From positions 1 to 64,000 of the IMG/VR virus record IMGVR_UViG_3300028883_000007: DNA of 64,000 bases; one strand, 5' to 3'. Below, one piece after another: positions 18,195-49,875 of the stretch. Source of the stretch: a virus. The position numbers and the translations under genes were made by a program. Below the pieces are notes generated by a model, which made no database searches, was not told where the DNA came from, and worked only from the letters and a program-made list of their open reading frames with translations. How positions within the stretch are numbered: position 1 is the first letter of the stretch; each line of letters begins with the position of its first letter.

Positions 18195-19238
18195 TTAACT
18201 CCAGTGCTGAATGCCAGAACGGCCTTCAGAATCAGCGCGAACCTGCGGAACACTGATGGTCATAACCTTATACTCCTTGGTCAGACCCCCATCATTGCTC
18301 CACTCGACGACGGTGATACCCATACCCTGAACCAGCCGCACAGTTTCCGTATTCATCTGAACGAGAACCACATTTGCGGCGGTCATCTGATCGGAGACCT
18401 TGATATCACTGATGCCTTCAATTTCCAGGAGGCGCTGACGGAGACTTTTGGGATAACTGGAGTTGTAATCCTCATCCAACTGGGTCTCATAGGCCGTGGG
18501 GATGTAGAGAACATACGGACCGTAACAACGATCCGCGATCGCAGCCTGTTTCATAGCAACAACCTGCGCAAGGATGGTAGCACCAGTGGAAGCAGAGGCG
18601 GTCCATGCGGTAAGACTCCCCGTATTTCGGTTGGGAGCATCCAGGTATCCATAAATGGTCCCTCCGCCGAAGGTATAGGTGCCAGAACCATTGAAGAGCA
18701 TTTGCTCCACTTTGTCGGCGCATTTGCGAGCACACATTTCGATCATCGTGGTATCCAACGGCTGGCCATGTTTACGACTGGCGGTCAGCTGGCGGATATC
18801 AAAGGAGAACTCCTTGTGAACGATGGGCAGGGGGAGATAAGCGATGTCGAATTCAGGGCGGTCTTTCCGGCCCTTACTGGCGGCATTCATGCTCATTGTT
18901 GCACCCTGTACATCCTTCATTTTCTGGTACTCCAGAACAGTCGTTCCCAGTCCGTCGCCAATGTTATACACCAACCCCCGGGAGATAAGGTCAGCGACTC
19001 CAATCAACCGACTTTTGAAAGCCTGGATAACGGCTGTATCGATAACTTTCCACTCATCCTTGCGGAGAGTAGCATTGGCAACAGGGACCGCCTTCAGCTC
19101 ATTGCCAATCATTTTGGAGACATACGGTTTCCCGTCGTTTCCAATAAAGGGCCGCAGAGCCAAGGGAGACATATTGTTCGCCATCAGCTTTTCGGCCACG
19201 CTTCCATGGGCCTGTCCATTTACAAAAAAGTCTTCCAT
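18195..19238 (-). CDS. Major capsid protein (HK97 fold; DUF2184/encapsulin-like sequence pattern)
   Basis: 347 aa. LRKDEWKVIDTAVIQAFKSRLIGVADLI...LGTTVLEYQKM.D...A.MSM......DRPEFD..YLPLPI.HKEF.F..R.L resembles the encapsulin/linocin-like capsid family. It follows the scaffold and decoration genes. Confidence 0.8.
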   Translation of the reverse strand: MEDFFVNGQAHGSVAEKLMANNMSPLALRPFIGNDGKPYVSKMIGNELKAVPVANATLRKDEWKVIDTAVIQAFKSRLIGVADLISRGLVYNIGDGLGTTVLEYQKMKDVQGATMSMNAASKGRKDRPEFDIAYLPLPIVHKEFSFDIRQLTASRKHGQPLDTTMIEMCARKCADKVEQMLFNGSGTYTFGGGTIYGYLDAPNRNTGSLTAWTASASTGATILAQVVAMKQAAIADRCYGPYVLYIPTAYETQLDEDYNSSYPKSLRQRLLEIEGISDIKVSDQMTAANVVLVQMNTETVRLVQGMGITVVEWSNDGGLTKEYKVMTISVPQVRADSEGRSGIQHWS

Positions 19239-19298: not shown

Positions 19299-19766
19299 TT
19301 ACAGAATTTCGACGATACAACGACCGGACGGGTCAACTGCACTGGAACCGGACATATCGCAGGCTTCGCGAGCTCTGGCGATAACATGGGTCTCCGTGAT
19401 GATACCACTGGAATCCGGAACCGCTTCAGACAAGGTGCCATCTCCATTGGAGGACAGGTCATCCGCCTTGGCAATTGCTTGACCATTGGCAATCCAGGCC
19501 AGAACTTCGTCTCCAGACCGGAAGATGCCAAACTGGACAAGATCTCCGCTGGCATAATTGTCATCGATGCCATCGCCCTGAAGGTCATCCTCCAGAGCAA
19601 ACATCATCAGGGCTTTGCCTCCCTTGGTGGCATGGGCTTTCACCGTATCGGTGGCCGCACTCGTGCGTTCCAGGAGATATCCGGGTTTTACTACTCCGGA
19701 AGCCAGTGCTTCTCCCTTTACAGGGGTTCCTTTGATGGTAATCGTATCTCTGTCATTTTCAGCCAT
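19299..19766 (-). CDS. Head decoration / capsid cement protein (DUF2190-like)
   Basis: 155 aa, Gly/Asp-rich and beta-rich in pattern. It lies immediately upstream of the capsid gene, the usual DUF2213-DUF2190-capsid arrangement. Confidence 0.55.
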   Translation of the reverse strand: MAENDRDTITIKGTPVKGEALASGVVKPGYLLERTSAATDTVKAHATKGGKALMMFALEDDLQGDGIDDNYASGDLVQFGIFRSGDEVLAWIANGQAIAKADDLSSNGDGTLSEAVPDSSGIITETHVIARAREACDMSGSSAVDPSGRCIVEIL

Positions 19767-19854: not shown

Positions 19855-21276
19855 TTAGTCGAACTGTAAAACCGGGGCAGGCATGGCTTCTTCTACTACT
19901 TCCCCTGCTCCCCCGGTATTCGCGGCGAAATTGGCCTTGGTCCCCTCCGGCTTGACATTGGCAAGTTTGGCCAGTTTTTCCAACTGCTCCATGCCCATCC
20001 CTTTGAGCTCGTCCTCCGTAAAAGCATTGGCTTCATTGGCCATAAGGCCAGCAACCAGTTCACTCTTCCGGGCATTGTGTAGGCGGATACTTTCCTGAAG
20101 AACATTCTGAATATCTGCCGGAGCTTCAGCAATAAACTCTTCAGTGGTCTTGGCCTTGGAGGGTTCTTTGTTCTCCACCTTTTTCTCCGTTTTGGGCGGA
20201 ACCGGGAGAGCAGAAAGTTCAACCCTTTCATATGCCTCCTCGTCCAGGTTGTTCAGCCATTCGGAATCGGCTTCGGTGAACTTGGTCCTTTCATTTTCAA
20301 TAAGCGCCTTTACTCTTTTTTCACAGCATCCCATTTTGTTTTCTCCTTTGTTATCGTTTGTATTTTGCAAATCTCTGTCTACTTTTTTGTTTACCACAGG
20401 TTTATACTGCTTTTCAAGGAAAACTTCTACCGCCTCCCCTTTAAATTCTACCCTGCCGTTTTCGATTGGTTTATACTCTTGTTTATACAGTTTGGAAGGC
20501 TGATTCCTCACCGCCTCATTATCCCAGTTCGGCTCTGCCCGGTAAATAAAATAAGAGTCAAAAACATCTTGCACATAATGGAGATATTGGTTGTTATCCA
20601 ATTCATCCACTTTGCGCTGGAGTAAATACCGAGTGTCGTTATGGGAGGTTTCATTTTTCACCAACCCCCATTTTGCCAAAAAGTTCCTGACCTTTTTTGT
20701 CAACGTCTCCTTTTCCTCCTTTTTTTGATTTCGAATGCCACAGCCATCCTCCCAGCTACAGGCCCCCGTCGCCCCCGGTAAAAGGGCCAAATGGTCAGGA
20801 TCAATTGTTTGGACAGCCGCCTGATACTCCTCGTCGTTCCAGACTCCTTCTATTTCCTGTATACTCCCGCCAAGCCCCGTTGATACCTGAAGAACACTAT
20901 GGTTTCGGATTGTCGGTATCACGGCTTGGTTTATTGTATTGGTCCTGTCAATGTCAAGCCATGCCTCCGCCTTAAGGCTTTCTTCCTCCCAGCGAGAATT
21001 CCTTATATGGCCAGCAATAAATCGATCTCCACCTTCCTCATTAACAGAAATTAACTCCCCGTTATTCTCCGGATGCGGGATAGTGACTGGAACATTATTC
21101 CAAGCTTCTACATTTTGGTTAATAACATCCGGAGGATAATAAATGGGACCGGCCGACCCAGAATGTACTCCCTCCTTCAGCATGACAACAGGGGCCACCA
21201 AATAACTCCTCCCCTCCAGGGTCACTTCATGAGTTTGATAATTGTCAAGTACATTGTTTGCAAGATTAATATCCAT
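19855..21276 (-). CDS. Capsid scaffolding / maturation protein (DUF2213-like N-terminal domain plus charged coiled-coil C-terminus)
   Basis: The N-terminus is GRSYLVAPVVMLKEGVHSGSAGPIYYPPDV....WNNVPVTIPHP. The long KE-rich C-terminal half is typical of scaffolds. Position is between the MuF and capsid genes. Confidence 0.6.
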   Translation of the reverse strand: MDINLANNVLDNYQTHEVTLEGRSYLVAPVVMLKEGVHSGSAGPIYYPPDVINQNVEAWNNVPVTIPHPENNGELISVNEEGGDRFIAGHIRNSRWEEESLKAEAWLDIDRTNTINQAVIPTIRNHSVLQVSTGLGGSIQEIEGVWNDEEYQAAVQTIDPDHLALLPGATGACSWEDGCGIRNQKKEEKETLTKKVRNFLAKWGLVKNETSHNDTRYLLQRKVDELDNNQYLHYVQDVFDSYFIYRAEPNWDNEAVRNQPSKLYKQEYKPIENGRVEFKGEAVEVFLEKQYKPVVNKKVDRDLQNTNDNKGENKMGCCEKRVKALIENERTKFTEADSEWLNNLDEEAYERVELSALPVPPKTEKKVENKEPSKAKTTEEFIAEAPADIQNVLQESIRLHNARKSELVAGLMANEANAFTEDELKGMGMEQLEKLAKLANVKPEGTKANFAANTGGAGEVVEEAMPAPVLQFD

Positions 21277-21396
21277 TTTCTCATTCCTCCGTTTCTACTT
21301 CGGTAACTGGCTGGACAATGCCCTCTTCATCAACAAAGCTAATTGACTCCAGCCAAGCATTAAAATCCTCTTCACTCTCTTTATCAATTTTATATA

Positions 21397-23298
21397 TCAA
21401 GGTAGTCCCCCTATAAAATCCCAAACTACAGGATCAATATAACTATTTTTAGCCATTACCGGAGTATTGTGAAGGAACTTGCTGGCCTTAATAGAAACGT
21501 CCCTCACAATTTTCTTTTTCTTTGCCTCCGTTAATGTTTTCCCCCCGTACTTTTTCAATTCGTTATAAGCAATCCTTGTTCCATGATATGTACGATAATC
21601 TTTTAAGGAGTACTTTTTACCATTGGCCAACTCTTTAATATAATCATTTAACTTAGAAGCTGGGATATCCGGAAAAAGATCATCGTTTGGTTTTAACCCT
21701 TTTTTTCTCCCCTCTATCCACTCCGCCAAAACATCATCGCGCAAAGTATAACGAGCCGGAAGCCCTTCTTTAGCGGTAAAACTTAGAGTAATTTTATCTC
21801 CGTCAATTTTGGCATGCTTACTTTTAAGGGTTGTAAGGCCATATGCTTTTTTCTTGGCCTTAAAGTCTGTGCGTGAACCTGCCCGAATTGCTGTTTTATC
21901 TTCAAGCTTTAGAAGTAATGCCCTTTGGTCTCCGGCCGAAATCCCATCCTCCATTTTCTTCCGTATAGTAGGCATATCCCGGGAGAAATCTTTTACTCTA
22001 TCAAATTTTTTGCGAGCAGCGGCTTGAATATGTTTTTGGGAATACCTGTACTGCCACCGACCAGCCGCATCCTGACCAATTGCCTGAACCTTTAATTCGG
22101 GGTTAACTGCTACAACAACATTTCTCCATGCGGGAGGGATGCGCATTTTTTTCAATTTCTCTACTACTTCTTCTGCAACCGCCTCTCCGTTTAAATACCA
22201 GTTACCATCTGAGCCCCTTGTATAATCCCTACACGCATCCGGAGTGTCAACTGTTTTATTAAAAAAATTGCCGATGGAACGGAGTATACAATGGCCAAAT
22301 CTACCAATTGAACTCATAGGCTGGGGTTTGCCAGCATCAGGAGGAGAAACAAAACGAGTTCCTACACTTGCCTCTTCTTCGCCCCAACTATCCAACCAAG
22401 GCCGGAGAGCACAACGACAATTAGGCTCACCAATTAATTCATTTCCCTCCTTGCGAGTATATACTTTGCCATGACGAGCAGCATGGGTACTCCTTACTCT
22501 TTCATCTAATGCCGTCCACCATTTGACTTTAACATCTTCTCCAACAATCCCCTCCAGGGCCTCCATTTCATTAAGGGCCGCAGAGTTATGAGTGTAGACA
22601 ATCTCCGTTCGGGCTATTAACCTTGCCCGAACTATCCCAACCTTATCTACTCTATCATTAAGCTTTTGGGCTATTCTGTAGGGTCCGTCTCCCCTTGCCA
22701 TGCCATTGGCCAATTCCCGGGAAATTTGGGAGTTCATTGCTTCTGTTACTCCCTTAAGCTCGTTGAAAGCCCTTGTATATATAAGGGCCACCCTATCAGC
22801 ATGAAAAGGCTGGTAAAAAGCCGCTCCCAAAGTTTCATCCGTATAAGCTGGTATTACATCTACTCCACCAGCAATCAGATCTTGTCTGGCTTCGGCCAAA
22901 CCCTTTTGATAGGCGGACTGTATATAAACGTTTGTCCAGGGAGTATCTCTCCGGTCCAATATTGACGGGCCACGAGTGATCTCCAGGATACCTTTTTCTT
23001 CTTCTCCCTGAAGCCACTCCATAAACCCAGCAATTTTTTCATCATCTTTAGAATACCGAAAAGCTCTCCTTGGGACCGGGTCCAGGTTCTCCGCCAGTGT
23101 TACAACCTCCCGAGGCTTCAGGTCAAAGCAATCATTGTCTATAATAGACTTGCGGATTACTCCCTTTAAAGCCCGAAAACGCTTGTTCATCTGGGAGCAA
23201 AACTGATTCCGCAGAGTCAACGTCATTGTCGGGTCTTTATCTCTCCGGGAGATATTTGCAACTTGAACTCTCGCTATATGTTGGGAAAGTGTAGTCAT
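21397..23298 (-). CDS. MuF/SPP1 gp7-family head morphogenesis protein fused to a type IB DNA topoisomerase domain
   Basis: MuF part: ARLIARTEIVYTHNSAALNE...WWTALDERVRSTHAARHGKVY...GEPNCRCALRPW. TopIB part (about 21400-22266): IPPAWRNVVV...GQDAAGRWQYRYS, AIRAGS...YGLTTLKSKH, SFTAKEG, KDYRTYHGTRIA, LHNTPVMAKNSYIDP. Confidence 0.85.
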   Translation of the reverse strand: MTTLSQHIARVQVANISRRDKDPTMTLTLRNQFCSQMNKRFRALKGVIRKSIIDNDCFDLKPREVVTLAENLDPVPRRAFRYSKDDEKIAGFMEWLQGEEEKGILEITRGPSILDRRDTPWTNVYIQSAYQKGLAEARQDLIAGGVDVIPAYTDETLGAAFYQPFHADRVALIYTRAFNELKGVTEAMNSQISRELANGMARGDGPYRIAQKLNDRVDKVGIVRARLIARTEIVYTHNSAALNEMEALEGIVGEDVKVKWWTALDERVRSTHAARHGKVYTRKEGNELIGEPNCRCALRPWLDSWGEEEASVGTRFVSPPDAGKPQPMSSIGRFGHCILRSIGNFFNKTVDTPDACRDYTRGSDGNWYLNGEAVAEEVVEKLKKMRIPPAWRNVVVAVNPELKVQAIGQDAAGRWQYRYSQKHIQAAARKKFDRVKDFSRDMPTIRKKMEDGISAGDQRALLLKLEDKTAIRAGSRTDFKAKKKAYGLTTLKSKHAKIDGDKITLSFTAKEGLPARYTLRDDVLAEWIEGRKKGLKPNDDLFPDIPASKLNDYIKELANGKKYSLKDYRTYHGTRIAYNELKKYGGKTLTEAKKKKIVRDVSIKASKFLHNTPVMAKNSYIDPVVWDFIGGLP

Positions 23299-23299
23299 A

Positions 23300-23488
23300 T
23301 TATTTTATCCAGTACAACAAACCAAAATATATGGCCCAAATAAAACCAATTGGGAGCAACCAAAATAACCGAAAGAGTGGAGTAATGTCAAAATAGCCAA
23401 TTGCTCTATATGGCCGAAAGGTAAGCCACAAACACAATAGAGTAAATAAGCTGGGGAATACCCAAAATCCAATTGTAACTTGCATCAC
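23300..23488 (-). CDS. Small two-TM membrane protein
   Basis: 62 aa with two hydrophobic spans. It is tightly packed between the portal and MuF genes (4-nt overlap upstream, 1-nt gap downstream). Confidence 0.5.
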   Translation of the reverse strand: MMQVTIGFWVFPSLFTLLCLWLTFRPYRAIGYFDITPLFRLFWLLPIGFIWAIYFGLLYWIK

Positions 23489-24939
23489 TCTTCTCCTTCA
23501 TCTGGTTCGGGTTCATTATTTTGCCCACCTACTCCACCAGACGCCTCAATTTCTTTGCGCTCTTCCTCCACTTCCTTTTCGTACACCTCTAAAGACTTTT
23601 CCAAAGCATCCAAATCCTCTTGGCTCATCGACATAATTTGGCGGAGAAAAATGTCAGGCGGCATGACAAGGGTTGCAGACGGGCTATTGGAATATGCCAC
23701 CAGCGCATCTGTTTTTGTCTTAGAGATATCCATTTTCTCTTTTTCCGAAGGAGCAGAAAGTTCAGGCCATTTAACGGTGTACCCTTCCTTGGGTTCTGGC
23801 AGTACCCCATACTCTATCATTTTGTCAATGAAGGGCCGGAGTATCATTGGCTCCACATAATCGGTTCTCCGCTCGTCCACCTTCTCGTTCCAGTTCCTTT
23901 GATCTTGGGAACTGGCAAGTTCTCCCCTCTCCGACCCAAGGAGGATTCTTTTGGGGATTCCCGTCGTGGCCGAAATAAGGGTCACAAGGATATCAAAATG
24001 ATTGCTGGGGTCTGCAACTTGTGGGGCCAATTGCTCCACATCTACTCCCTGAAGACGCAAGTGGCGCTGAAGCTTGTGCATGTAGCTCTTGATCTGGGTC
24101 TGCATGTCCGCAATGGTTTGGCCATCTATTCTTGCATCCTTATCCATTTTGAAGTTCAAACCCGGAAACGCTCCCCTCCAGAACATCTCCGCCGAACCAC
24201 CAACAACCAACTGCAAAGAATCAAGGAGGTTTAAAACGGACTTGAGTTTAGGTTCCGCATTCTCATCGTCCTCCAGGAGATCTTCCGCCAAATGCAAAAC
24301 CCTTGTATGGTGTACAATAAGCGCCTTAGTACTTGTCGCCCCACTGGTGCTTAATGAATTGGCAGAGGTAGAAACCGCTTTAATCTTATACTCCTCCGGC
24401 AAACCATACCGTTCATCAAAAACATCCGAAACTCTTTTATTTACTTCGGCGTTACACTGCATATAAGGCCGGAGATAAAGAAGTTTACGATTCCCGGGGG
24501 ATACTGGGTTTTTAAATTCTCTCTCCTCCTTCACATCGTCAAACCCCATAAAAAGGACACCATACTTACCAATCCCTGTCAGTCGGTCCGCCCTGCGGAG
24601 ATAATGAAAAATTTTCTTCTCTTTAAGCAGCTCTGTCCATGCAGTTTCAAAGGCAGTAGAATCAGCATCCTCCGTTTCAATAATATCAGGGGACTTCCGC
24701 CAGCAAGCATCCACAGGACGGTCAATAATAGCCTTGGAGATATCCTGACGAGTATACTTCGCCAAGTAATCATCAAAAGTTGGCTTAGCGTTCCACCCCA
24801 AGGCCTTATAAATATCTCTATCGTCTTGGTACATTTTACCCAAACGAGCAATCAGGTCAGCTCTAGAAGTGAGCTCGTTCACCATATTGGCCAATTGTTT
24901 ATACTCTTCAGATTGCTCCATTTGCCTTTTTCTCCTCAA
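23485..24939 (-). CDS. Portal protein (DUF1073-type)
   Basis: 484 aa. DYLAKYTRQDISKAIIDRPVDACWRK.P.I......AFE.AW..L.....IFHYLRRADRLTGIGKYGVLFMGFDD fits DUF1073 portals. The C-terminus is acidic, and the gene lies downstream of terL. Confidence 0.8.
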   Translation of the reverse strand: MRRKRQMEQSEEYKQLANMVNELTSRADLIARLGKMYQDDRDIYKALGWNAKPTFDDYLAKYTRQDISKAIIDRPVDACWRKSPDIIETEDADSTAFETAWTELLKEKKIFHYLRRADRLTGIGKYGVLFMGFDDVKEEREFKNPVSPGNRKLLYLRPYMQCNAEVNKRVSDVFDERYGLPEEYKIKAVSTSANSLSTSGATSTKALIVHHTRVLHLAEDLLEDDENAEPKLKSVLNLLDSLQLVVGGSAEMFWRGAFPGLNFKMDKDARIDGQTIADMQTQIKSYMHKLQRHLRLQGVDVEQLAPQVADPSNHFDILVTLISATTGIPKRILLGSERGELASSQDQRNWNEKVDERRTDYVEPMILRPFIDKMIEYGVLPEPKEGYTVKWPELSAPSEKEKMDISKTKTDALVAYSNSPSATLVMPPDIFLRQIMSMSQEDLDALEKSLEVYEKEVEEERKEIEASGGVGGQNNEPEPDEGEE

Positions 24940-25196: not shown

Positions 25197-26576
25197 TCAC
25201 CACACTCCAATTCTACCTGTATTGTGAAGAACAAAATAGCCGCCTGACAAGGAGTCAATTATATCCATATGCCCTTTATCAGTACCATCAAATGACTCCG
25301 CCTTATCCAAGAATTTTTTATTCCAAGGCCCCCGAAGCAGTTTCACTCTACCATGCTCCGCTTGTGCCGAAACAGGTTTAGCCCTTGTGGCTTTACTTTC
25401 CCGCACCACATTTATCTTCACATTAAACTGGGGCAGTAAATCCAAATATGACTCCGCCTCTGCCTTACCTGCCTGTCCCGGGTCTTGCTCTATGCCCACC
25501 ATACAATCTATGCCGTCCTGTATGGCATAATTTTTCACAGTGTTTCTCACTTTGGCAGGAGTACCCCGAAACTCCTCTACATGCTCAATAAAAGTTATCC
25601 CGGAGGCTTCATGATAAGACTGCTTAAGCCCTGCGGTAAAACTGGGGTCGTTATCTGGAGTGGACTCTGTTGCTGCCCGATCCCAATAACGTATTGTCTC
25701 CAGTTCATTACGGGGAGGCAATACATCCACAATTTCAAACCAGCCCCTCTGAAAGAACAAACCAGCAACAGGCCTTACATCCCAATTTCCCCCCAGCAAC
25801 CGCTCCCGGTCTACTTTGGGCATTGCCATAAGGTTTGCCAAGTACTCCGGGTTGTTTTGCATTAAGATTTTGTTATCGTATACATCACTTTTTATAAAGG
25901 TAAAAGATTTAGGGCGAATCATCTGGTTGCCATTATCATCGTAATGGCCATACTTTTTAATCAAGTACTCCGGGGTATTTGCCCAAATCACCTCATCGTT
26001 TAAAGTGATAAAATAACGGATTACTCCCGAACGTTCCTCAATTGCAAAACCGTCCTCACCTATCCACCAATCAATAAAACCCCGGACCCAGCTATCAGGG
26101 TCAGGGTTACAAGTTCCCCTCATGTATGGGCGAATACCACAAAGACTCCGGTTCCGGGAAAGCATGTAGGTAAATTGGCCCCAGCTAAAATGAGTTATCT
26201 CATCAAAACCAAAAAAGGGAACCTGTGCTCCCTGCCAACCTGTTTTATGCTTTTCATGTTGTAAATGAGCAAAACGTACTCTGGCCCCATAAGGAAAAAT
26301 ATACCGCAATTTATTTTCATTAGGTTTGGCCCCCAACCCCGGATATATTTCGGCTGCGGTATCCCATAAGCCGCCTTCATTTGTTACCTGAGTTGACTCC
26401 CGCCTAAAAATAACAGCAAAGAAATTCGGGTTTTCATGGTGGCGCAAGGGCTCAATTAACAGGGCATAAGTTTTCCCGCCCCCAGCAGCACCACCATAAA
26501 AAGCAATATCAGCCGGAGTACTTAAAAAGGCGGTTTGCGGTCCGGGCTGGGGTTTTATAATGGTGCTTTGGGCCAT
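25197..26576 (-). CDS. terL: Terminase large subunit
   Basis: Walker A is YGGAAGGGKTYAL and Walker B is VPFFGFDEITHF. The size (459 aa) includes a C-terminal nuclease-like half. Confidence 0.9.
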   Translation of the reverse strand: MAQSTIIKPQPGPQTAFLSTPADIAFYGGAAGGGKTYALLIEPLRHHENPNFFAVIFRRESTQVTNEGGLWDTAAEIYPGLGAKPNENKLRYIFPYGARVRFAHLQHEKHKTGWQGAQVPFFGFDEITHFSWGQFTYMLSRNRSLCGIRPYMRGTCNPDPDSWVRGFIDWWIGEDGFAIEERSGVIRYFITLNDEVIWANTPEYLIKKYGHYDDNGNQMIRPKSFTFIKSDVYDNKILMQNNPEYLANLMAMPKVDRERLLGGNWDVRPVAGLFFQRGWFEIVDVLPPRNELETIRYWDRAATESTPDNDPSFTAGLKQSYHEASGITFIEHVEEFRGTPAKVRNTVKNYAIQDGIDCMVGIEQDPGQAGKAEAESYLDLLPQFNVKINVVRESKATRAKPVSAQAEHGRVKLLRGPWNKKFLDKAESFDGTDKGHMDIIDSLSGGYFVLHNTGRIGVW

Positions 26577-27157: not shown

Positions 27158-27967
27158 TCACTCAGCTTCTATTTCTTCCCGCCCATTGTCCGGCATGTAA
27201 ATATGCACATTATGCTCAACAGGGCCACCATCTTTTCCAGTAACTTCAACCGCCTTACGGTCGTGCCAGTTGTCCGGGTCACGATTTTTAAGCCAAAAGG
27301 CAATAGCGCCAACATCTGGGGGCAGGGCTTTTTCACTTATCGTTTCCTCATCCAAGACCACTATGTATTCCCCTGTTGGGTTGCCCTCTGCATCCCGTTC
27401 CTTCACCCTTTTAAATTTTTTGCTGGTTTCTGTATACCTGTACCCTGTTGCCTTGGCTTTTAAGCTTTTTTCAATTAAGCTGCCATCAAATGCCGCCTTT
27501 CCTTCTTTTAAGGCACTATCAAAGTTGGGGTATGTATCACGCCACCTTTTAAGGCATGCTGTAGTGGTATTAAAGGCTTGTGCAAGCTCATCATTGGTTA
27601 AACCATGAACTTTGCATAATATTTTCACAATGTTATCATATTCCGGTTTATAACTGGTAGGTCTACCCATACGAGTGGGGTTGCCTTGCTTGTCCCGGTT
27701 TAACAGGGTTATGGCTTTTACTTGTTTTTTATCATAATGGTCAATTTCACCTATATTGGGTAGGGGCTTTGTTTTGCGTTTACGGTATGGGTTGTTGGTG
27801 GGGTAGCTGGAGCTGTTTATATGGTGGCCATTACGTTTAGTGCGTTTACGGGGTTTGGGTTGTTTGTTTTTCATTTTTTTCGTGTCCCTATAGGGCTTAA
27901 ATGAGCATAATGAATATGATTCAGGGTTATTTAGGTTAATTGGTAAAAAAATATTTATTTTTTTCAA
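27158..27967 (-). CDS. terS: Terminase small subunit (HTH type)
   Basis: GRPTSYKPEYDNIVKILCKVHGLTNDELAQAFNTTTACLKRWRDTYPNFDSALKEGKAAFDGSLIEKSLKAKATGY fits the common TerS HTH pattern. The true start may be M32 (27874). Confidence 0.6.
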   Translation of the reverse strand: MKKINIFLPINLNNPESYSLCSFKPYRDTKKMKNKQPKPRKRTKRNGHHINSSSYPTNNPYRKRKTKPLPNIGEIDHYDKKQVKAITLLNRDKQGNPTRMGRPTSYKPEYDNIVKILCKVHGLTNDELAQAFNTTTACLKRWRDTYPNFDSALKEGKAAFDGSLIEKSLKAKATGYRYTETSKKFKRVKERDAEGNPTGEYIVVLDEETISEKALPPDVGAIAFWLKNRDPDNWHDRKAVEVTGKDGGPVEHNVHIYMPDNGREEIEAE

Positions 27968-40071: not shown

Positions 40072-40467
40072 ATGATTGAAATAACCAAAGTATATGAATT
40101 TGAAGCCGCCCATCATTTACCTTACCATCAAGGAGCCTGCCAGCATTTACATGGCCATTCGTATAAACTAGAGGTTACCGTTACAACTTGGTTCGCATTT
40201 TGTATTAATGCAGAGGACGAAAAAAACCCTGAAAGTGGGATGATAATGGATTTCTCCACTTTAAAGGAAGTCATTAAAAAATGCGCTCCTTTTGACCATA
40301 CCAACCTAAACGCCCACTTCGCAAACCCCACTGCTGAAAACATGGTTGGCCATATTGCTTATGAAATTACAAAATGGCTGGAGAAAAAACACCCAAGAAA
40401 AAGAGTCATTCGTGTAAGGTTATGGGAAACGAAAACTTCTTATGCAACCTGGAGGGCAAATGAATAA
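40072..40467 (+). CDS. queD: 6-carboxy-5,6,7,8-tetrahydropterin synthase
   Basis: FEAAHHLPYHQGACQHLHGHSYKLEVTV carries the PTPS/QueD His/Cys pattern. Size is 131 aa. Confidence 0.85.
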   Translation: MIEITKVYEFEAAHHLPYHQGACQHLHGHSYKLEVTVTTWFAFCINAEDEKNPESGMIMDFSTLKEVIKKCAPFDHTNLNAHFANPTAENMVGHIAYEITKWLEKKHPRKRVIRVRLWETKTSYATWRANE

Positions 40468-41107
40468 AATTAAAATCAATGAAATTTTTCAAAGCATTAA
40501 CGGAGAAGTTACTCATTGGACACAAGGGTCCTTGACTACTTTTATCCGTTTTTCTGGTTGTAATTTGGATTGCTCTTATTGTGATGCAAATTATCACAAA
40601 AAAGTAAACGCCGAATTAAATCCGATTGAAGTTTTGGAGATAATTGAAAAAACTGATTGCAAAAATGTTACCATCACCGGGGGGGAACCCACCCTACAAC
40701 CTATGCTCTGGCCCTTGCTTTCATATTTAGGGGAAGAGGGTTATAAGGTCACTATTGAAACCAATGGCACAAACCCAATTATCCCGACCCCATTTATTTC
40801 TTGGGTAGTTGATTATAAATTTAATTACCCCAACCAAATGAATAAAGATAATTGGGACCGCCTTACTTGCCGGGACTGGCTTAAATTTGTGGTAAAATAC
40901 CCTGAGGATTTATTTGCCATTAACACCTTTATAAAGGACAACCCAACCCTGAGCAAAAAAAACCTTGCTATCGGCACAACAGGGCTTGTAAAGCCCTATG
41001 GAATCGTTGATTACCTTATACAAAAACGCATGTATAATTTTATAATAAACTACCAGATTCATAAACAAATCTGGCAAGCGAGGGGGGAAGCAAACCAAAT
41101 TATATAA
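40460..41107 (+). CDS. queE: 7-carboxy-7-deazaguanine synthase (radical SAM)
   Basis: INEIFQSINGEV..WTQGSLTTFIRFSGCNLDCSYCD contains the CxxxCxxC cluster motif. The start is set at MNKIKI (ATGAATAA overlap with the queD stop); the ORF track starts at 40442. Confidence 0.85.
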   Translation: MNKIKINEIFQSINGEVTHWTQGSLTTFIRFSGCNLDCSYCDANYHKKVNAELNPIEVLEIIEKTDCKNVTITGGEPTLQPMLWPLLSYLGEEGYKVTIETNGTNPIIPTPFISWVVDYKFNYPNQMNKDNWDRLTCRDWLKFVVKYPEDLFAINTFIKDNPTLSKKNLAIGTTGLVKPYGIVDYLIQKRMYNFIINYQIHKQIWQARGEANQII

Positions 41108-41124
41108 AAAAAAATGAAAAAATT

Positions 41125-41158
41125 ATGAAACTTTTTCAATTACCCTTTATAATATAAT
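41125..41158 (+). promoter_or_regulatory. Candidate promoter with tandem overlapping TATAAT boxes
   Basis: cTTTATAATATAATca has TATAAT at 41148-41153 and 41153-41158. The -35 is weak (ATGAAA at a 17-nt spacing). It shares the word TTTATAATATA with 34803 and about 49890. Confidence 0.35.
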
Positions 41159-41224
41159 CAGAACACAATGAAACATTAATTTTTCACAAGCCAATTTTGG
41201 CAAACAAACCAAAGGAGAAGAGAA

Positions 41225-41869
41225 ATGAAAAAAGCCGATGTAACTGTAAAAATGCTCAAGGCCATTGCAGAGGATTTGAACGACGTAATGGGGTTCGACA
41301 GCAACCCCATTCCAACCACTGGCAAACGGGCCGAAATTATCAAGGAGGTTTTGGATGCCGCCATCGATATTGAGCAGGCGGACATTGACGGAGAAAAACC
41401 CCTGAAGGCCGACACCATTAAACATCTCAAGGTTCTGGGCTGGGAAGGCCCCAAAGATGCCGAAGAGGAAACCGAAGAAGAACCGGCCGAAGAAACCGCC
41501 GAAGAAGAAACCGCCGAAGAAGAAACCGCCGAAGAAGAAACCGCTGAAGAGCCCACCAAAAAGGAAACTGCCAAGGGCAAGGGCAAAGGCAAAGGCAAGG
41601 GCAAAGCAAAGGGCAAAACCAAGCCCAAAGGCCAAGCCCCAAAAAAGGCTTCTGAAAAGGGTCCCGGCATCATCGCCTCCATCCTGGAGTTCGTCACCGA
41701 GCATGGCCCCATTACCAAGGAGGACATTGTCAAAAGGCTGGAAAAAAGGTTTCCTGATCGGGATACCGTCGCAATGGGTAAAACTGTGCAATGTCAGCTT
41801 CCCAAACGCATGAGCAAGGAAAAGAAAGTAAACATCGTTAAAACCGACGAAGGGTTTGAAATCCAGTAA
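41225..41869 (+). CDS. Highly charged repeat protein with a wHTH-like C-terminal domain (possible DNA-binding/nucleoid-associated protein)
   Basis: It contains (ETAEE)x4, then KGKGKGKGKGKAKGKTKPKG, then GIIASILEFVTEHGPITKEDIVKRLEKRF. It has its own promoter-like element and a strong terminator. Confidence 0.6.
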   Translation: MKKADVTVKMLKAIAEDLNDVMGFDSNPIPTTGKRAEIIKEVLDAAIDIEQADIDGEKPLKADTIKHLKVLGWEGPKDAEEETEEEPAEETAEEETAEEETAEEETAEEPTKKETAKGKGKGKGKGKAKGKTKPKGQAPKKASEKGPGIIASILEFVTEHGPITKEDIVKRLEKRFPDRDTVAMGKTVQCQLPKRMSKEKKVNIVKTDEGFEIQ

Positions 41870-41888
41870 ATAACAGCATCATATGTTC

Positions 41889-41924
41889 GCCCCCCGGGAT
41901 TAATTTCTCGGGGGGCTTTTTTTT
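41889..41924 (+). terminator. Rho-independent terminator
   Basis: GCCCCCCG-ggattaatttct-CGGGGGGC, followed by T8. Confidence 0.85.
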
Positions 41925-41954
41925 GTGCCTTTAACATATCAAAAAAGGAGTATT

Positions 41955-42635
41955 ATGAAAGCAATCGTTTTATTTTCAGGGGGACAAGATTCAACAACTT
42001 GCCTTTACTGGGCCTTAAATGAATTTAAAGAAGTACTGGCTCTTAATATTCAATATGGCCAAAAACATCAGGCCGAAATTAATGCGGCTTATGCTATTAG
42101 CAAATTGACAGGAGTTCAATTAATACCCATGGATCTCTCCCGCATTTTTTCTTTAATTGGAAACTCTGCCCTGACTGACAAAAGTACTCCCTTTTCAGAT
42201 GTCTCTATGCCGCATCCAAAAAACCACGATCTTCCTGCCTCTTTTGTTCCAGGCCGTAATTTAATTTTCATTACTGTTGCTTGCATGGTAGCTTATAAAC
42301 ATGATGCAAACCATGTTATAACTGGGGTATCCCAAGCGGATTACTCCGGTTATCCTGATTGCAGAAAGAGCACTATTGCTGCTTTGTCTGTAGCTGTTGA
42401 AATGGGTATGGAAAAAGCTTTTCACATACATACTCCCTTAATCAACGTAACCAAAAAAGAGGAGGTTTTGTGGGCCAAAACAATTCCCGGTTGTATGGAG
42501 GGTCTTGCCTTTTCCCATACCTGTTACAATGGGCAAATTCCCCCTTGTGGTGAATGTCCTGCCTGCAAATTAAGAGCAAAGGGGTTTGCCGAAGCCCAAA
42601 CCATTGACCCTCTTATTGAAAGGTTAAACAAATGA
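41955..42635 (+). CDS. queC: 7-cyano-7-deazaguanine (preQ0) synthase
   Basis: [17 protein letters not shown] is the PP-loop. The C-terminal Zn cysteines are [18 protein letters not shown]. The start is set at the ATG after AAAAGGAG; the ORF track uses an upstream GTG. Confidence 0.9.
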
Positions 42636-43540
42636 AATACTATGGAGTAAATGAGTTTAACACCGACGTCAAAATCCTATACCGCCAGATTAAAGCATCT
42701 GACAAAAAATACTATGGAATTTATCCAATCCCAAGAGGAGGAATTCCGCTGGGAGTCTCCCTTTCCCATATGTTAAATGAGCCAATATTATCCAAGCCTA
42801 ACCCCCAATGCTTGGTTGTAGACGATATTATTGATAGCGGCAAAACAATTGCTCCTTACCAAGCATATTATGATACGGCTGTTATCCATGTATCGCCAAA
42901 CAACAAAGCTAACACTCCCACTTTTTTCGCTGCAAAAAAAGATCCTAAGGTTTGGATAGAATACTGGTGGGAGAAAAACGAAGCCCCAGTGGAAGATTCT
43001 GTTATCCGACTATTGCAATACTTGGGGGAAGACCCCAAGCGACCCGGATTGAAAGATACCCCTAAACGCTTTGTTAAGGCTTGGAATCATATGTTTGGTG
43101 GCTACCAGCAAAATCCTAAAGATGTAATAACTGTTTTTAACAACAACGAGGATGGGATAGGCAAATATGACCAAATGGTTCTCCTGAAAGATATCGAAAT
43201 ATACTCCACTTGTGAGCATCACATTTTGCCGTTTATAGGCAAAGCCCACATTGCTTATATCCCGGGGGAAAAAATCTTGGGCATCTCCAAGCTTGCCCGT
43301 ATTGCGGATATCTATGCCAAAAGGCTTCAGATACAGGAGAGGTTAACTGACCAGATTACAGCCTGTATTGAAGACCTTATACATCCTCTCGGGGTTGCTT
43401 GTGTTGTTGAAGCGTTTCATTTGTGCATGCGAATGAGAGGGGTACAAAAGCAAAACAGTATGATGGTTACTTCGTCTTTAAAAGGTGTTTTCAAAACAGA
43501 TGCCAGTGCTCGCAAGGAGTTTATGGATTTGATTAAATGA
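42632..43540 (+). CDS. folE: Phosphoribosyltransferase-domain / GTP cyclohydrolase I fusion protein
   Basis: N-terminal about 120 aa: [13 protein letters not shown]...[14 protein letters not shown], the type I PRTase PRPP loop. C-terminal region: [10 protein letters not shown]...[19 protein letters not shown]...ISKLARI...[12 protein letters not shown], which is FolE. Confidence 0.8.
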
Positions 43541-43573
43541 AAGAGCATTTGGCCGAACTCAATACCACTCTTA

Positions 43574-43651
43574 ATTGCCCGGTAAATTGCCCGTATTTAA
43601 ATATTTATCTTGATACGGGTAATTGCTCCTGTTCTTTAGGTTTACGGGTAT
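43574..43651 (+). promoter_or_regulatory. Four ATTGCCCG / CGGGTAAT half-sites (operator-like array or hairpin) upstream of the transporter gene
   Basis: ATTGCCCGG (43574), ATTGCCCGT (43586), ACGGGTAAT (43615) and ACGGGTAT (43644). The middle pair can form a 10-bp hairpin, TTGCCCGTAT/ATACGGGTAA. Confidence 0.4.
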
Positions 43652-43690
43652 CATCCCCAACCAATCTATATAATTATCTGGAGGAAAAAA

Positions 43691-44167
43691 ATGAAGAATA
43701 AATATTTTTGGCCTGTACTGTATTTGCTCAGTATACTCCTTGGAAACCTGTTTGTTATTTGGTTTGGCATTGTAAAAGTACTGGGCCTTGTTTTCCCTGC
43801 CGGAGTCATTTTTATTGGCCTTACCTTTTCTTTTCGGGATTACGTTCAGCGCACTTGGGGAGACTGGGCTTGCTGGGTTTGGATGCTCCTTGCAACCATT
43901 ATAACCTTTTTCCTAAATCAACAAGTTGCCTTTGCCTCTGTTTGTGCTTTCCTTATTTCTGAAGGAGTAGACTGGTTTAGTTTTAAAGTTTTGAAAATGC
44001 CATTTAAAAAGCGGATATATATTTCCAATTTGTTTTCCTGTCCGCTTGACTCCTTGATTTTTGTAACCATCGCCTTTGGCTTTTACTGGCCTGCCATATG
44101 GGGGCAAGCGGTCATTAAATACGCTTCGGGCCTTTTGGTTTTACCCTTTATAAAGGATAAAAAATGA
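43691..44167 (+). CDS. yhhQ: Queuosine-precursor transporter (YhhQ / VUT / DUF165 family)
   Basis: Polytopic membrane protein. VFPAGVIFIGLTFSFRDYVQRTWG matches the YhhQ signature. Confidence 0.7.
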   Translation: MKNKYFWPVLYLLSILLGNLFVIWFGIVKVLGLVFPAGVIFIGLTFSFRDYVQRTWGDWACWVWMLLATIITFFLNQQVAFASVCAFLISEGVDWFSFKVLKMPFKKRIYISNLFSCPLDSLIFVTIAFGFYWPAIWGQAVIKYASGLLVLPFIKDKK

Positions 44168-46551: not shown

Positions 46552-49500
46552 ATGTCTTTTTGTCATTTGCATAACCATACTGAATATAGCCAATTAGATG
46601 GAGTAGGTACTCCTCAAAACTATGCAAAAAAAGCTGCCGAATTGGGCTTTAAATATTTGGCGATGACAGACCATGGAAACGTAGATGGAGCAATTCAATT
46701 TCAAAAGGCTTGTAAAGAGAATAATATAAAGTCGATTATTGGTTGTGAAATGTATATTGTGCCATTTATGGGGGCCAAAAACAAAGGAGAACAGCGAGGC
46801 CATATAACGGTATTGGTTAAAAATGAAAGTGGCTGGGAATCGCTTCTCCGCTTGCTTACAAGGGCAAATTTAGAAGGTTATTACTACCGACCCCGGATAG
46901 ATTATGACTCTGTTTTAGAATCTGATCTCTCCGGTTTAATTTTTATGACTGCCTGTGCTGGTTCTTTTCTCCGGTTAGAGGGTGGGGTGGATTTTTTATT
47001 AAACCTAATCCGCAAAAAAGCAGAGTGTTATTTAGAAATAATGCCTCATAATATCTCCGCCCAAAAAAAACAACATGATTTATTGAACAACATATTAGAT
47101 AAATTTTACAATGAAGAAATAGAACCAAAATTCGTGGCAACCAATGATTGTCATTATGTAAATCGGGGAGATTGGAAAGCTCAAGAAATACTCCTTGCCA
47201 TTAACCGTAAAGCCAAATGGGATGACCCTGACCGTTTTAAATTTGGCTTTAAGGGGTTGCACCTCCGAACTGAAACGGAGATGATAAAAGCTTTTGAAAA
47301 ACAAAACTATTGGGATGATGAAACTATTGAAGAGGCAATGGGAAATACTCTTGTTATTGCAAAACAATGTTGTGATTTTGTTATCCCCAAACAAGATATT
47401 TCCTTGCCTGTACCAAGTTATTTTTCTTCTCGTTTTGGAGAAGTATTTGATGACGATACTGTTTTAGAAAACCTCCTTCAAAACAGCCCCCATGTTCATT
47501 TACTTGTTAAAAAAGAGTATACTGAAAGATATAACTACGAATTTGAAATTATATCTAAAAAAGGGTTCTCCCGTTATTTTCTTATCGTTGTTGATTTAAT
47601 TCAGTGGTGCTCCGAAAATGATGTGCCTGTTGGTCCCGGGAGAGGTAGTGTAGGCGGCTCTTTACTGGCTTATTTATTGGGTATTACAGAAACAGACCCT
47701 ATAAAATACGGCCTTTATTTCTCCCGGTTTATTTCAGAGGATAGACTTGACTACCCTGATATTGATATAGACTTTGCGGATAACAAGCGCCATCTTGTGA
47801 TAGAGTATTTAGAAAACACCTATGGCAAATACAATACTGCCGGGATTTCTACTTTTCTCCGTATGAAAGATAGAGGCATCATTCATGACATTGGTAGAGT
47901 ATTTGAAGTGCCTTACCCCGAGGTTGACCAGTTTGCAAAAAGCATTGTCCCTTTTGATGAAAATATGGATACCTTAGAAAAGGTTGCAGAATCAGAAGAG
48001 GGGAGTGAATTTGTAAAAAAATATCCAGAAGTTATCCGCCAAGCTAAAAAACTCAAAGGCCAAATCCGGGGAGCTGGCCAGCATGCCGCAGCAGTGGTTA
48101 TTTCTAAGGAGGATTTACGAGAAACAAATCGTTGTAACCTTTGTATGCGGTCTAACCGAATCATGGCGAATTGGAGTATGTCGGATAGTGAATATTGTGG
48201 TTTAATGAAACTTGATATCCTTGGGCTTAATACTCTATCTGTCCTCGCACAATGCCAAAAATTAATTAACTCCCCCGATTTAAAACTCAGTGCAATTCCT
48301 CTAAATGACAACGATGTTTTTAAAATGCTTTCCAAAGGTGATACAGCCGGAGTATTTCAATTATCCGCTGTCCCTTCAACAAAATTATGTAAAGAAATGC
48401 AGGTACATGATTTTCTGGATATCCCTGCTATCCTGGCCCTTGTAAGGCCTGGACCCTTTTACTCTGGTATGACCGAACTGTATGTTAAGCGCAAGCATGG
48501 AGAAGACTGGGAACCAGACCACCCCATATATGAAGAGATAACAAAAGACACTTATGGCCTCCTTGTTTACCAAGAACAGGTTATGGCTGTCATCTCTAAA
48601 CTGGCGGGATTGCCAGAATCTACCGCAGATAAAATTCGGAAAATTATCGGTAAGAAAAGAGACCCGGAGGAATTTGAAAAATATAAAGAGATGTTTGTAA
48701 AGGGTTGTTTAGAACAAAAAACCTTTTCTGAAAAAAGAGCAATTGAGTTTTGGGAGGGGTTGTTACAGTGGGCCAGTTATGGATTTAACAAGGCCCATGC
48801 TACTGAATACGGCCTTATCTCTTATTGGACAGCATACCTTAAGTATCATTGGCCTGCCCAGTTTATGGCAGCTGAACTGACCTATGGTACTGGAAAAGAA
48901 GACGTCGCCAAAGAAGCCCAAAAAAGAGACATTAAAATCATTCCACCCAAAATAGGGATTTCGCATGCCCTTGAATGGAGAGTAGAAAACAATACTTTGT
49001 TTGCTCCCTTTGTAGAAACCAAAGGGATTGGAGAAAAACAAGCTTTTACTTGCCTGCCCAAAAAAGCGAAGTTATCCAGTTTCTTTGATGATGGGAGGGG
49101 AGAAATCAATGTCACAACTTCAATCGCAAAAATTTTAAACAATATTTGCGCACACGATAAAGACGTTATCCCAGACCAAGAAATTTTACAAGAGTATTTT
49201 GCTGAAGGGTTGTTTACTTTATCTGAAGAGGATAATGATTCAGATGATAGCATGCCTACTCTCCGACGGTTTAACAGGCCAGCAAAGAAAAATTGCCCAG
49301 AGTCTCCTTGGGTAGAAAGAAAAAGAGCAAAATTTGATTTCACAGATTGTACCGCCTGTCAGTTTTATAAAGAGGGCAATGGCCCCATAAACCCCTGCCC
49401 CGGGATTTTAAATGCAGCAATAATAGGTGAGGCCCCCGGTAAAAAAGAGGATTCAACAGGCAAGCTTTTTGTGGGGCCAACAGGAGATTTAATTTGGTCA

Positions 49501-49875
49501 ATATTTAAACAATATGGCGGCTTTACAAGGAGAAGTTTTCACCTCACAAATGTTTGCAAATGTTATCCATATAGAAGCCGAACTCCCAAACCTGTTAACA
49601 TTAAAGCTTGTTTACCACATTTGAAAAAAGAGTTAAAAACAATCAATTGCAAAGTGGCTTTGATTTTTGGAAATGTTGGATTGCAAGCTTTCGCCGGAGA
49701 AAAAACAGGGATAATAAATAAATCAGGAAATGTTCAATATCTCCCTGAATGGGACATCATGGCTTGTTGGTGCGTTCATCCTTCATGGGTACTCCGCGAC
49801 TCAAGAGAGCGGATAAAAGTATTGAGAAAAGGTATCGCTAAATTTCTTAATATTATTGATGATATTCCATTTTAA
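46552..49875 (+). CDS. dnaE: DNA polymerase III alpha (DnaE-type, PHP domain) fused to a C-terminal family-4 uracil-DNA glycosylase domain
   Basis: PHP domain: HLHNHTEYSQLDG...MTDHGNVDG. Polymerase core: GRGSVGGSLLAYLLGIT...YPDIDIDF. UDG4 (about 49321-49872): CTACQFY, GEAPGKKEDSTGKLFVGPTGDLI, NVCKCYPY and HPSWVLR. Confidence 0.85.
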   Translation: MSFCHLHNHTEYSQLDGVGTPQNYAKKAAELGFKYLAMTDHGNVDGAIQFQKACKENNIKSIIGCEMYIVPFMGAKNKGEQRGHITVLVKNESGWESLLRLLTRANLEGYYYRPRIDYDSVLESDLSGLIFMTACAGSFLRLEGGVDFLLNLIRKKAECYLEIMPHNISAQKKQHDLLNNILDKFYNEEIEPKFVATNDCHYVNRGDWKAQEILLAINRKAKWDDPDRFKFGFKGLHLRTETEMIKAFEKQNYWDDETIEEAMGNTLVIAKQCCDFVIPKQDISLPVPSYFSSRFGEVFDDDTVLENLLQNSPHVHLLVKKEYTERYNYEFEIISKKGFSRYFLIVVDLIQWCSENDVPVGPGRGSVGGSLLAYLLGITETDPIKYGLYFSRFISEDRLDYPDIDIDFADNKRHLVIEYLENTYGKYNTAGISTFLRMKDRGIIHDIGRVFEVPYPEVDQFAKSIVPFDENMDTLEKVAESEEGSEFVKKYPEVIRQAKKLKGQIRGAGQHAAAVVISKEDLRETNRCNLCMRSNRIMANWSMSDSEYCGLMKLDILGLNTLSVLAQCQKLINSPDLKLSAIPLNDNDVFKMLSKGDTAGVFQLSAVPSTKLCKEMQVHDFLDIPAILALVRPGPFYSGMTELYVKRKHGEDWEPDHPIYEEITKDTYGLLVYQEQVMAVISKLAGLPESTADKIRKIIGKKRDPEEFEKYKEMFVKGCLEQKTFSEKRAIEFWEGLLQWASYGFNKAHATEYGLISYWTAYLKYHWPAQFMAAELTYGTGKEDVAKEAQKRDIKIIPPKIGISHALEWRVENNTLFAPFVETKGIGEKQAFTCLPKKAKLSSFFDDGRGEINVTTSIAKILNNICAHDKDVIPDQEILQEYFAEGLFTLSEEDNDSDDSMPTLRRFNRPAKKNCPESPWVERKRAKFDFTDCTACQFYKEGNGPINPCPGILNAAIIGEAPGKKEDSTGKLFVGPTGDLIWSIFKQYGGFTRRSFHLTNVCKCYPYRSRTPKPVNIKACLPHLKKELKTINCKVALIFGNVGLQAFAGEKTGIINKSGNVQYLPEWDIMACWCVHPSWVLRDSRERIKVLRKGIAKFLNIIDDIPF

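Follow-up and report, generated by a model that had tools for sequence, protein, structure and literature searches.

The window considered here is the whole stretch of 64,000 nt that was analysed, positions 1 to 64,000 of IMG/VR virus record IMGVR_UViG_3300028883_000007, which makes up most of a tailed-phage genome of approximately 66 kb. On its minus strand, a single uninterrupted open reading frame (ORF) encodes a 633 aa protein in which a head-morphogenesis domain of the MuF/SPP1-gp7 type is followed by a linker and a type IB topoisomerase (TopIB). A 39 aa acidic ORF, here called the mini-ORF, begins at the stop codon of this gene (Table 1). A first-pass annotation made from the sequence alone had described the gene as a fusion of MuF to a complete TopIB and had predicted a topoisomerase that is packaged in the virion and injected. 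Both domain assignments held when the protein was compared with profile, structure and protein databases, and to them we add that the ORF ends 13 aa past the catalytic Tyr and that the mini-ORF, which is conserved, belongs to the cassette.

All three Pfam matches in the fusion protein exceed their cut-offs (Table 1). The MuF assignment, made for the N-terminal 300 aa or so, coincides with the extent of the PHROG 758 'head morphogenesis' match, and the NCBIfam model for SPP1 gp7, TIGR01641, scored marginally under its cut-off (39.5 against 39.65 bits). The TopIB is a whole two-domain enzyme, and its best match among PDB sequences is the Deinococcus radiodurans TopIB 2f4q (E value 1.5e-30, aa 379–627), with the variola TopIB 2h7f also returned (E value 8e-12). 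Every TopIB motif quoted in the first-pass annotation is present and falls on the catalytic positions, including the bacterial-type Asn (N611) and the nucleophile Tyr (Y620). The R-K-R-N-Y pentad is unchanged in 47/47 complete TopIB domains that share 33–70% identity. An AlphaFold2 (AF2) model of the fusion protein, built with 22 homologues, has a predicted local distance difference test (pLDDT) score of approximately 90 across the TopIB half, and two parts of the linker (aa 308–327 and 341–352) are of low confidence and disordered. In a Foldseek search, the model matched the variola TopIB–DNA complex 2h7f (E value 4e-13, target-normalised TM-score 0.70) and the D. radiodurans TopIB (E value 1e-13).

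The window enzyme resembles the D. radiodurans TopIB (2f4q/3m4a) in both domains and in the whole pentad. With the poxvirus (vaccinia/variola) enzymes it shares family, fold and catalytic residues, except that Asn replaces the pentad His, as in bacterial enzymes. The equivalents of vaccinia Q69, Y70 and Y72 are retained (QYRY), and the specificity-helix residues K133, K135 and Y136, which correspond to S475, T477 and D478, are not kept. Judged on its sequence, the TopIB looks catalytically competent. Type IB topoisomerases work without ATP or Mg2+.

TopIBs and tyrosine recombinases have a common chemistry and fold, and the enzyme could, instead of acting as a general swivel, join covalently to phage DNA or recombine it, for example by circularising a terminally redundant genome or capping its ends against exonucleases. 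Vaccinia TopIB is capable of strand transfer and junction resolution in vitro, gp7-type proteins bind DNA, and XerH was a weak Foldseek match (E value 0.03). However, the sequence and fold are firmly those of a TopIB, with tyrosine recombinases (XerH and integrases) returned by Foldseek only at E values of 0.03 or worse and no Pfam match to Phage_integrase anywhere in the whole fusion protein. The small terminase subunit (TerS) and the Terminase_6-type large terminase subunit (TerL) give no sign of fixed genome ends. The window showed neither a repeated site nor an excess of the poxvirus target, as the number of CCCTT sites (194, with 228 ± 15 expected) is not raised and is uninformative. We regard a role in genome-end joining or recombination as highly improbable.

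Two neighbouring genes merged by a frameshift or by a chimeric assembly would also look like a fusion, and in three related phages (L002, L017 and L024; L and P numbers denote related loci and related proteins, respectively) MuF and TopIB occupy two ORFs in the same frame. This explanation was tested and rejected. The fusion is not a frameshift artefact, because an independent Logan assembly (SRR8554434) encodes an identical 633 aa protein. When 5.8 billion proteins were searched by a word index, PF04233, PF21338 and PF01028 were found together in >40 metagenomic proteins of 580–1067 aa, and these homologues, which come from many samples, keep MuF and TopIB in frame. The split versions do not arise by frameshift; they have a single clean stop codon, TAG or TAA, in two of the three phages an ATG comes next, and L017 has a Shine-Dalgarno-like site at the split. 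An artefact can practically be dismissed. In all three phages, the split point lies exactly within the loop between two conserved cysteines in the linker. This natural fission indicates that the halves can function as separate chains, and that the Cys–Cys loop marks a module boundary. Recoding of the stop codon was considered as a cause of the split and rejected, as the stop is a single TAA or TAG with a start directly after it in two of three cases and the Shine-Dalgarno-like site in L017, and stops elsewhere are normal.

When aa 360–633 were used to query 1.84 billion cluster representatives (50% identity) with phmmer, 476 matches with E values <1e-30 were returned. Among the best 150 of these, 102 proteins are 450 aa or longer and carry TopIB at the C-terminus or close to it, and long N-terminal extensions were found in 128 of 171 TopIB proteins examined. 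The first-pass annotation had called for a survey of the C-terminal domains of MuF proteins, and TopIB does recur there: in a Pfam scan of the 136 closest 50%-identity representatives, MuF was found in 38. The scan also gave 12 matches to portal families (Phage_portal, Portal_Mu and Phage_portal_3; PF04860, PF06074 and PF06381). The same set also includes ADP-ribosyltransferase (ART)-type domains (ART, ADPrib_exo_Tox and ART-PolyVal), Acb1, 2H phosphoesterase, ATLF-like protease, GNAT, NUDIX and Hint/intein domains. Of 52 related loci, 26 have TopIB in one ORF with MuF and two have it in one ORF with a portal; in eight, it lies ≤300 nt from a MuF ORF. Architectures other than that of the window include portal-MuF-TopIB (L014), Portal_Mu-TopIB (L041), Phage_portal_3-TopIB (L056), MuF...ART-TopIB in a protein of 2224 aa (L032), GNAT-TopIB-Acb1-MuF (L046) and ART-PolyVal with 2H and TopIB (L047). 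Polyvalent proteins, with at least two effector domains, are found in the relatives L032, L046, L047, L030 and L052, and the window protein carries a single cargo domain. A fold search of BFVD found no viral UniProt model spanning both halves.

At the level of predicted proteins and gene order, this comparison shows that TopIB is physically attached, or tightly genetically coupled, to capsid-internal portal-site proteins, and that the cassette associates exclusively with such head-internal anchors. The prediction of a packaged, injected topoisomerase is strengthened, though not proven, by this comparative evidence, because TopIB is fused to MuF or to portals of three families, and because it is found inside polyvalent proteins beside known injected-effector domains.

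Direct fusion of TopIB to three portal families could also point to a role during packaging, in which the tethered enzyme would release terminase-driven twist in the producer cell or the filling capsid and any injection would be incidental. The fusion gene sits in the packaging module, with the portal gene on one side and a possible scaffold gene on the other, and MuF/gp7 binds both portal and DNA (PMC6316719). However, MuF cargo inside the shell would reach only DNA that is already packed, and most tailed phages package DNA without a topoisomerase. TopIB also occurs in the same polypeptides as the host-directed Acb1, ART and 2H phosphoesterase, and the dedicated acidic partner, encoded on the same mRNA, suggests that the activity is restrained in the producer. 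We consider a packaging swivel distinctly unlikely.

Comparison of the two halves revealed that they have separate histories. TopIBs that are 55–60% identical to the query ride on MuF domains that phmmer cannot align with the query MuF (e.g. P0020–P0042), and MuF domains up to 72% identical to the query bear unrelated C-termini. The 72% identical MuF of P0018 is followed by an HExxH metalloprotease-like domain, and other cargo on related MuF domains includes ART, ATLF, NUDIX (P0065), PI3/PI4-kinase-like (P0079, P0093) and Hint domains. On the predicted proteins, TopIB is shown to behave as a mobile cassette among MuF lineages. Part of the linker, a cassette-specific adaptor motif with two cysteines, C337 and C356, is present in most of the close fusions and travels with TopIB and not with MuF. 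Both cysteines were found in 38/73 by a regular-expression count, and the motif is absent from 70/70 MuF relatives bearing other cargo and from stand-alone bacterial TopIBs. The fused TopIBs all stop 12–14 residues past the Tyr, whereas stand-alone bacterial enzymes run on for 67–131 residues. The tail after the Tyr in cellular enzymes is basic and 55–130 aa long; the phage cassette adds the N-terminal adaptor and the acidic partner.

Hint/intein insertions were seen in the MuF proteins P0063, P0074, P0101, P0106 and P0114, and in L052 (6947–10807), some of them with DUF559 or MTES_1575 nuclease-like domains. In the five P-numbered proteins, the insertion site is exactly the conserved 'PNC(RC)' motif.

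The TTG start codon of the mini-ORF overlaps the TopIB stop codon as TTGA, and a Shine-Dalgarno-like site (GGGGGA) lies upstream. Its net charge of approximately -11.5 is complementary to the pI of 9.8 of the TopIB. Using a profile built from eight homologues, we found the mini-ORF directly downstream of the TopIB-bearing ORF in 33 of 35 loci with a close TopIB (L002, L007–L040), with E values of 1e-10 to 1e-26. One of the two exceptions, L035, is cut by a contig end, and the other, L039, has a divergent acidic ORF only. The linkage spans unrelated MuF lineages and head modules (DUF2213/HK97-like, S78 protease/HK97 and SU10-like), and the mini-ORF also follows the portal fusions, the 2224 aa protein and the split genes. 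It is missing after MuF genes of the same lineage that carry other cargo (L059, L060). The family comprises 89 clusters, all short and unnamed, and the mini-ORF had no PDB match in a profile search and no PHROG match.

The acidic element is not always a separate product. In P0165, it is fused in frame to the C-terminus of TopIB (28.6 bits; 0/300 shuffles as good), and in distant TopIB clades an 'LMxDFxE[ST]Vx[FY] + acidic' element either makes up the tail of TopIB or opens the ORF that follows. When run on the distant-clade elements, the mini-ORF hidden Markov model was significant only for P0165 and L041. A profile–profile comparison (hhalign) of the mini-ORF with the distant acidic elements gave a P value of 0.0016 in the expected register, which is suggestive only of a relationship between them.

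Several further observations concern the mini-ORF and its surroundings. In the distant clades, the ORF after TopIB has at its start an acidic element of the 'DFxE[ST]Vx[FY]' type, followed by another effector-like domain: a 2H/LigT/Acb1-like domain in L050 (4899–6251), a weak match to the DUF6782 metallopeptidase in L047 (10925–12166) and DUF6582 in L051 (10259–10870). Two MuF-TopIB proteins, in L008 (4675–8157) and L025 (659–3595), have an extra unannotated segment of approximately 380–500 aa beyond TopIB, and in both the mini-ORF still sits after the end of the whole extended gene. An orphan copy of 47 aa (L061, 10001–10144) was found in a chromosome island of Desulfobacteraceae bacterium Eth-SRB1 (RPGP01000001.1, approximately 716.6 kb) with no TopIB nearby. 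Its neighbours are a 58 aa ORF that looks by eye like a ribbon-helix-helix protein, a 222 aa integrase fragment and a serine recombinase, and the copy may be what is left of a prophage or a gene that was captured. Homology of the mini-ORF to the C-terminal tail of poxvirus TopIB (TTFDEFLSIVVDHV) was also considered. A concatenated query lengthens the poxvirus alignment by approximately 12 residues, and the tail sequence was verified. This homology is unsupported, as 6.5–15% of shuffled tails score equally (P approximately 0.07).

The order of the head genes on the minus strand is TerS, TerL, portal, MuF-TopIB, mini-ORF, DUF2213 protein, decoration protein and major capsid protein (Table 1), and this synteny recurs in L007–L012, L019 and L034. 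A very hydrophobic ORF of 61/62 aa (23300–23488, minus strand) lies between the portal stop codon, with which it has a TGATG overlap, and the start of MuF-TopIB. It was not called by the gene caller in the Logan assembly and has no counterpart in L007 and L009, where the portal gene adjoins MuF.

Table 1. Features of the MuF-TopIB locus and of other genes in the 64,000 nt window
Feature	Position	Strand	Basis or remarks
MuF-TopIB fusion gene	21397-23298	-	single uninterrupted ORF, ATG start, 633 aa, 71.6 kDa, pI 9.5
Stop codon of fusion gene (TGA)	21397-21399	-	
MuF/SPP1-gp7-type head-morphogenesis domain, aa 7-300	22399-23280	-	PHROG 758, E value 1e-47; ends ...EPNCRC
Phage_Mu_F core, aa 191-298	22405-22728	-	PF04233, 58.1 bits (cut-off 29.6)
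MuF-TopIB linker, aa 301-372	22183-22398	-	AF2 model
Cassette-specific adaptor motif, aa 327-367	22198-22320	-	PMSSIG...C337, variable loop, P..C356-DY-R..G.W
TopIB N-terminal DNA-binding domain, aa 373-410	22069-22182	-	PF21338 (Top1B_N_bact), 33.3 bits (cut-off 27); 2f4q and 2h7f alignments; includes GRWQYRYS; whole TopIB, aa 373-633
TopIB catalytic domain, aa 424-633	21400-22029	-	PF01028 (Topoisom_I), 86 bits (cut-off 23.7), match aa 424-617
Codon of R472	21883-21885	-	translation; aligns with D. radiodurans R137 and vaccinia R130
Codon of K510	21769-21771	-	translation; aligns with D. radiodurans K174 and vaccinia K167
Codon of R569	21592-21594	-	translation; aligns with D. radiodurans R239 and vaccinia R223
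Codon of N611	21466-21468	-	translation; aligns with D. radiodurans N280 and vaccinia H265
Codon of Y620	21439-21441	-	translation; aligns with D. radiodurans Y289 and vaccinia Y274
Small acidic partner ORF (mini-ORF)	21281-21400	-	39 aa, net charge approximately -11.5, motif EDFNAWLESISFVDEEG
Small terminase subunit (TerS)	27158-27967	-	PHROG 309, E value 2e-34
Large terminase subunit (TerL)	25197-26576	-	Terminase_6N/6C
Portal protein, expected MuF anchor	23485-24939	-	PHROG 146, E value 1e-67; PF06381
DUF2213/PHROG 760 head protein, possibly scaffold or protease	19855-21276	-	directly downstream of cassette
Head-decoration gene	19299-19766	-	
Major capsid protein	18195-19238	-	
QueE-like radical SAM gene	40442-41107	+	
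QueC	41925-42635	+	
GTP cyclohydrolase I	42632-43540	+	
Vut_1/YhhQ-like transporter	43691-44167	+	

The plus strand encodes a replisome, with a DnaG-like primase, a DnaB-like helicase, a fusion of DNA polymerase III alpha to a uracil-DNA glycosylase, a clamp-loader-like ATPase and a gp32-like protein, together with RecA-like and SbcC/SbcD-like proteins, an SNF2 helicase and a sigma-70-like factor. With a replisome of its own, and with no integrase detected in the window ORFs scanned, the phage looks virulent. No tRNAs were found in the window, and when 15 kb of it was used to query GenBank phages with megablast, no match was returned. The cassette was found in only one of 185,579 GTDB species genomes, on a phage-sized contig of 61.8 kb binned with a Deltaproteobacteria metagenome-assembled genome, and a host in the Desulfobacterota is only hinted at. 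The closest MuF matches among isolated viruses are in haloarchaeal tailed viruses (Hardycor1, 40%; ChaoS9; HJTV-4), in contrast to the sigma-70-like factor in the window and to relatives pointing to Desulfobacterota hosts.

Two other features of the plus strand were recorded. A cluster of 7-deazaguanine/queuosine-precursor genes occupies 40442–44167 (Table 1), and 7-deazaguanine modification of the phage DNA is possible; DpdA was not identified. The polymerase fusion (46552–49875) is a 1107 aa protein with PHP and DNA polymerase III alpha regions and a C-terminus of the uracil-DNA-glycosylase superfamily (aa 956–1086, E value 4e-23).

The cassette has several features of known MuF-borne toxins. 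In SPP1, the portal brings a few copies of gp7 into the procapsid, and the protein aids the start of infection; delivery of cargo has been proposed for MuF fusions (PMC6316719). MuF is reported to be present at two to three copies per virion and to bind DNA (PMC12226406), and MuF and portal fusions have been viewed as the simplest injected effectors (PMC5512222). The window protein is like SPP1 gp7, Mu gpF and the MuF toxins in having a portal-adjacent N-terminal MuF domain and exchanged C-terminal enzymatic cargo. The MuF polymorphic toxins also have a small ORF downstream, reported for 89% of the toxin genes (Jamet et al. 2017, PMC5576092), and the mini-ORF likewise lies directly downstream and co-varies with the cargo. 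There are differences. TopIB is not mentioned as a cargo in PMC5576092, the toxins were reported only in temperate phages whereas the carrier here is virulent-looking and not a prophage, and here the small ORF is sometimes fused to the cargo and the cassette has its own two-cysteine adaptor. We conclude that the fusion fits the known MuF- or portal-anchored cargo, and that the type of cargo and the virulent-looking carrier set it apart from the published MuF toxins.

These parallels raise the question of whether the cassette is a toxin with its immunity protein, the injected TopIB relaxing or nicking the DNA of the host or of a competitor and the acidic mini-protein protecting the producer. 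Expression of vaccinia TopIB is harmful to Escherichia coli. The shuffling of the cassette across MuF lineages, the tightly linked small ORF and the orphan mini-ORF in a Desulfobacteraceae chromosome island without TopIB are all consistent with such a pair. However, the active site is of the housekeeping type found in TopIBs that religate DNA, and two to three enzyme copies per virion would be unlikely to outpace host gyrase across a chromosome. A phage that looks virulent and a cassette present in a single GTDB species genome, on a phage-sized contig, also argue against it, as does an acidic element that is sometimes fused to TopIB itself. A toxin–immunity pair therefore seems to us an unlikely explanation, though one with real parallels.

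Other known systems differ from the window gene in how the enzyme is carried. The TopIBs of jumbo phages (Motura, phiRSL1, Lu11 and PaBG; PMC7824862) are also from tailed phages, but they share only approximately 25% identity with the window enzyme and are encoded by separate genes, annotated as topoisomerase, with no MuF or portal attached. The polyvalent or injected head proteins (T4 Alt, P1 DarB; Iyer et al. 2017, PMC5512222) are alike in that enzymes are delivered with the DNA, and relatives of the single-cargo window protein set TopIB beside ART, Acb1, 2H phosphoesterase and metalloprotease domains. PMC5512222 does not deal with TopIB, and 'topoisomerase' occurs there only in the title of a reference. 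Among isolated phages in GenBank, no MuF-TopIB or portal-TopIB was found when the queries were the full-length fusion, its TopIB half, two proteins of the portal-TopIB type and one distant TopIB; the matches were limited to MuF-only proteins, portal-only proteins or the stand-alone TopIBs of jumbo phages. A search of the full text of open-access papers and bioRxiv likewise found no description of a MuF- or portal-TopIB arrangement, in agreement with the first-pass annotation, whose author knew of no described example.

The reading that we favour, with a probability of roughly 0.6, is that the gene encodes a TopIB carried as cargo inside the capsid, injected with the genome and acting as an early DNA swivel. 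From the comparisons above we infer that the enzyme is packaged and ejected, what its acidic partner does and which DNA it acts on. The N-terminal MuF domain would dock the protein to the portal, and a few copies would be placed inside the procapsid, as has been shown experimentally for SPP1 gp7, with the complete two-domain TopIB borne on a flexible linker. The enzyme would be produced late in infection with its very acidic co-translated partner, which would probably bind the basic TopIB as a DNA mimic or regulatory element and keep it off the DNA of the producer cell. At the next infection, the enzyme would exit the capsid along with the genome and swivel DNA in the first minutes, ahead of phage gene expression. 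The likeliest substrate would be the co-arriving genome, in which the torsional stress of entry and early transcription could be relieved, as with encapsidated poxvirus TopIB. Action on the co-injected genome is favoured because of the low copy number, DNA binding by MuF and the poxvirus precedent. Poxvirus virions package TopIB, and carriage in the virion for the start of infection would be a property that the two systems share, although in the tailed phage the enzyme is part of the same polypeptide as a head-assembly protein.

Several points weigh against this role for an injected swivel. The case for packaging and ejection is made by analogy with MuF proteins and from gene context, and a 72 kDa protein would have to unfold to pass through the tail, a question that applies equally to the MuF toxins. 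As the acidic element is sometimes within the TopIB chain or in the next ORF, it may be a structural or docking element and not an inhibitor. No target preference can be inferred, because the specificity-helix residues differ from those of vaccinia, and the frequency of CCCTT in the window is unremarkable.

A broader version of the cargo proposal, which we hold to be doubtful, treats TopIB and its acidic partner as a mobile two-part cargo that can be grafted onto any capsid-internal anchor, whether MuF, portal or polyvalent protein. The partner, as a DNA mimic, would silence the enzyme, and a Cys337–Cys356 loop open to splitting or nicking might tether it, as in AB toxins. TopIB would be released as a first-minute DNA-topology effector once it reached the reducing cytoplasm of the next host, and bacteria could take up orphan copies of the partner gene as a counter-measure. 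The roles suggested here for the acidic partner and for the cysteine pair are hypothetical.

This family has been invisible to experiment because none of the 476 clusters has a cultured representative. The best-known type IB topoisomerase carried within a virion is that of the poxviruses. If the enzyme described here is packed and delivered with the genome, tailed phages would likewise control DNA topology from the first moment of infection, and a DNA-acting cargo would join the ADP-ribosyltransferases, nucleases, alarmone synthetases and enzymes directed against the cyclic oligonucleotide-based antiphage signalling system (anti-CBASS enzymes) that are found on MuF, portal and polyvalent proteins.

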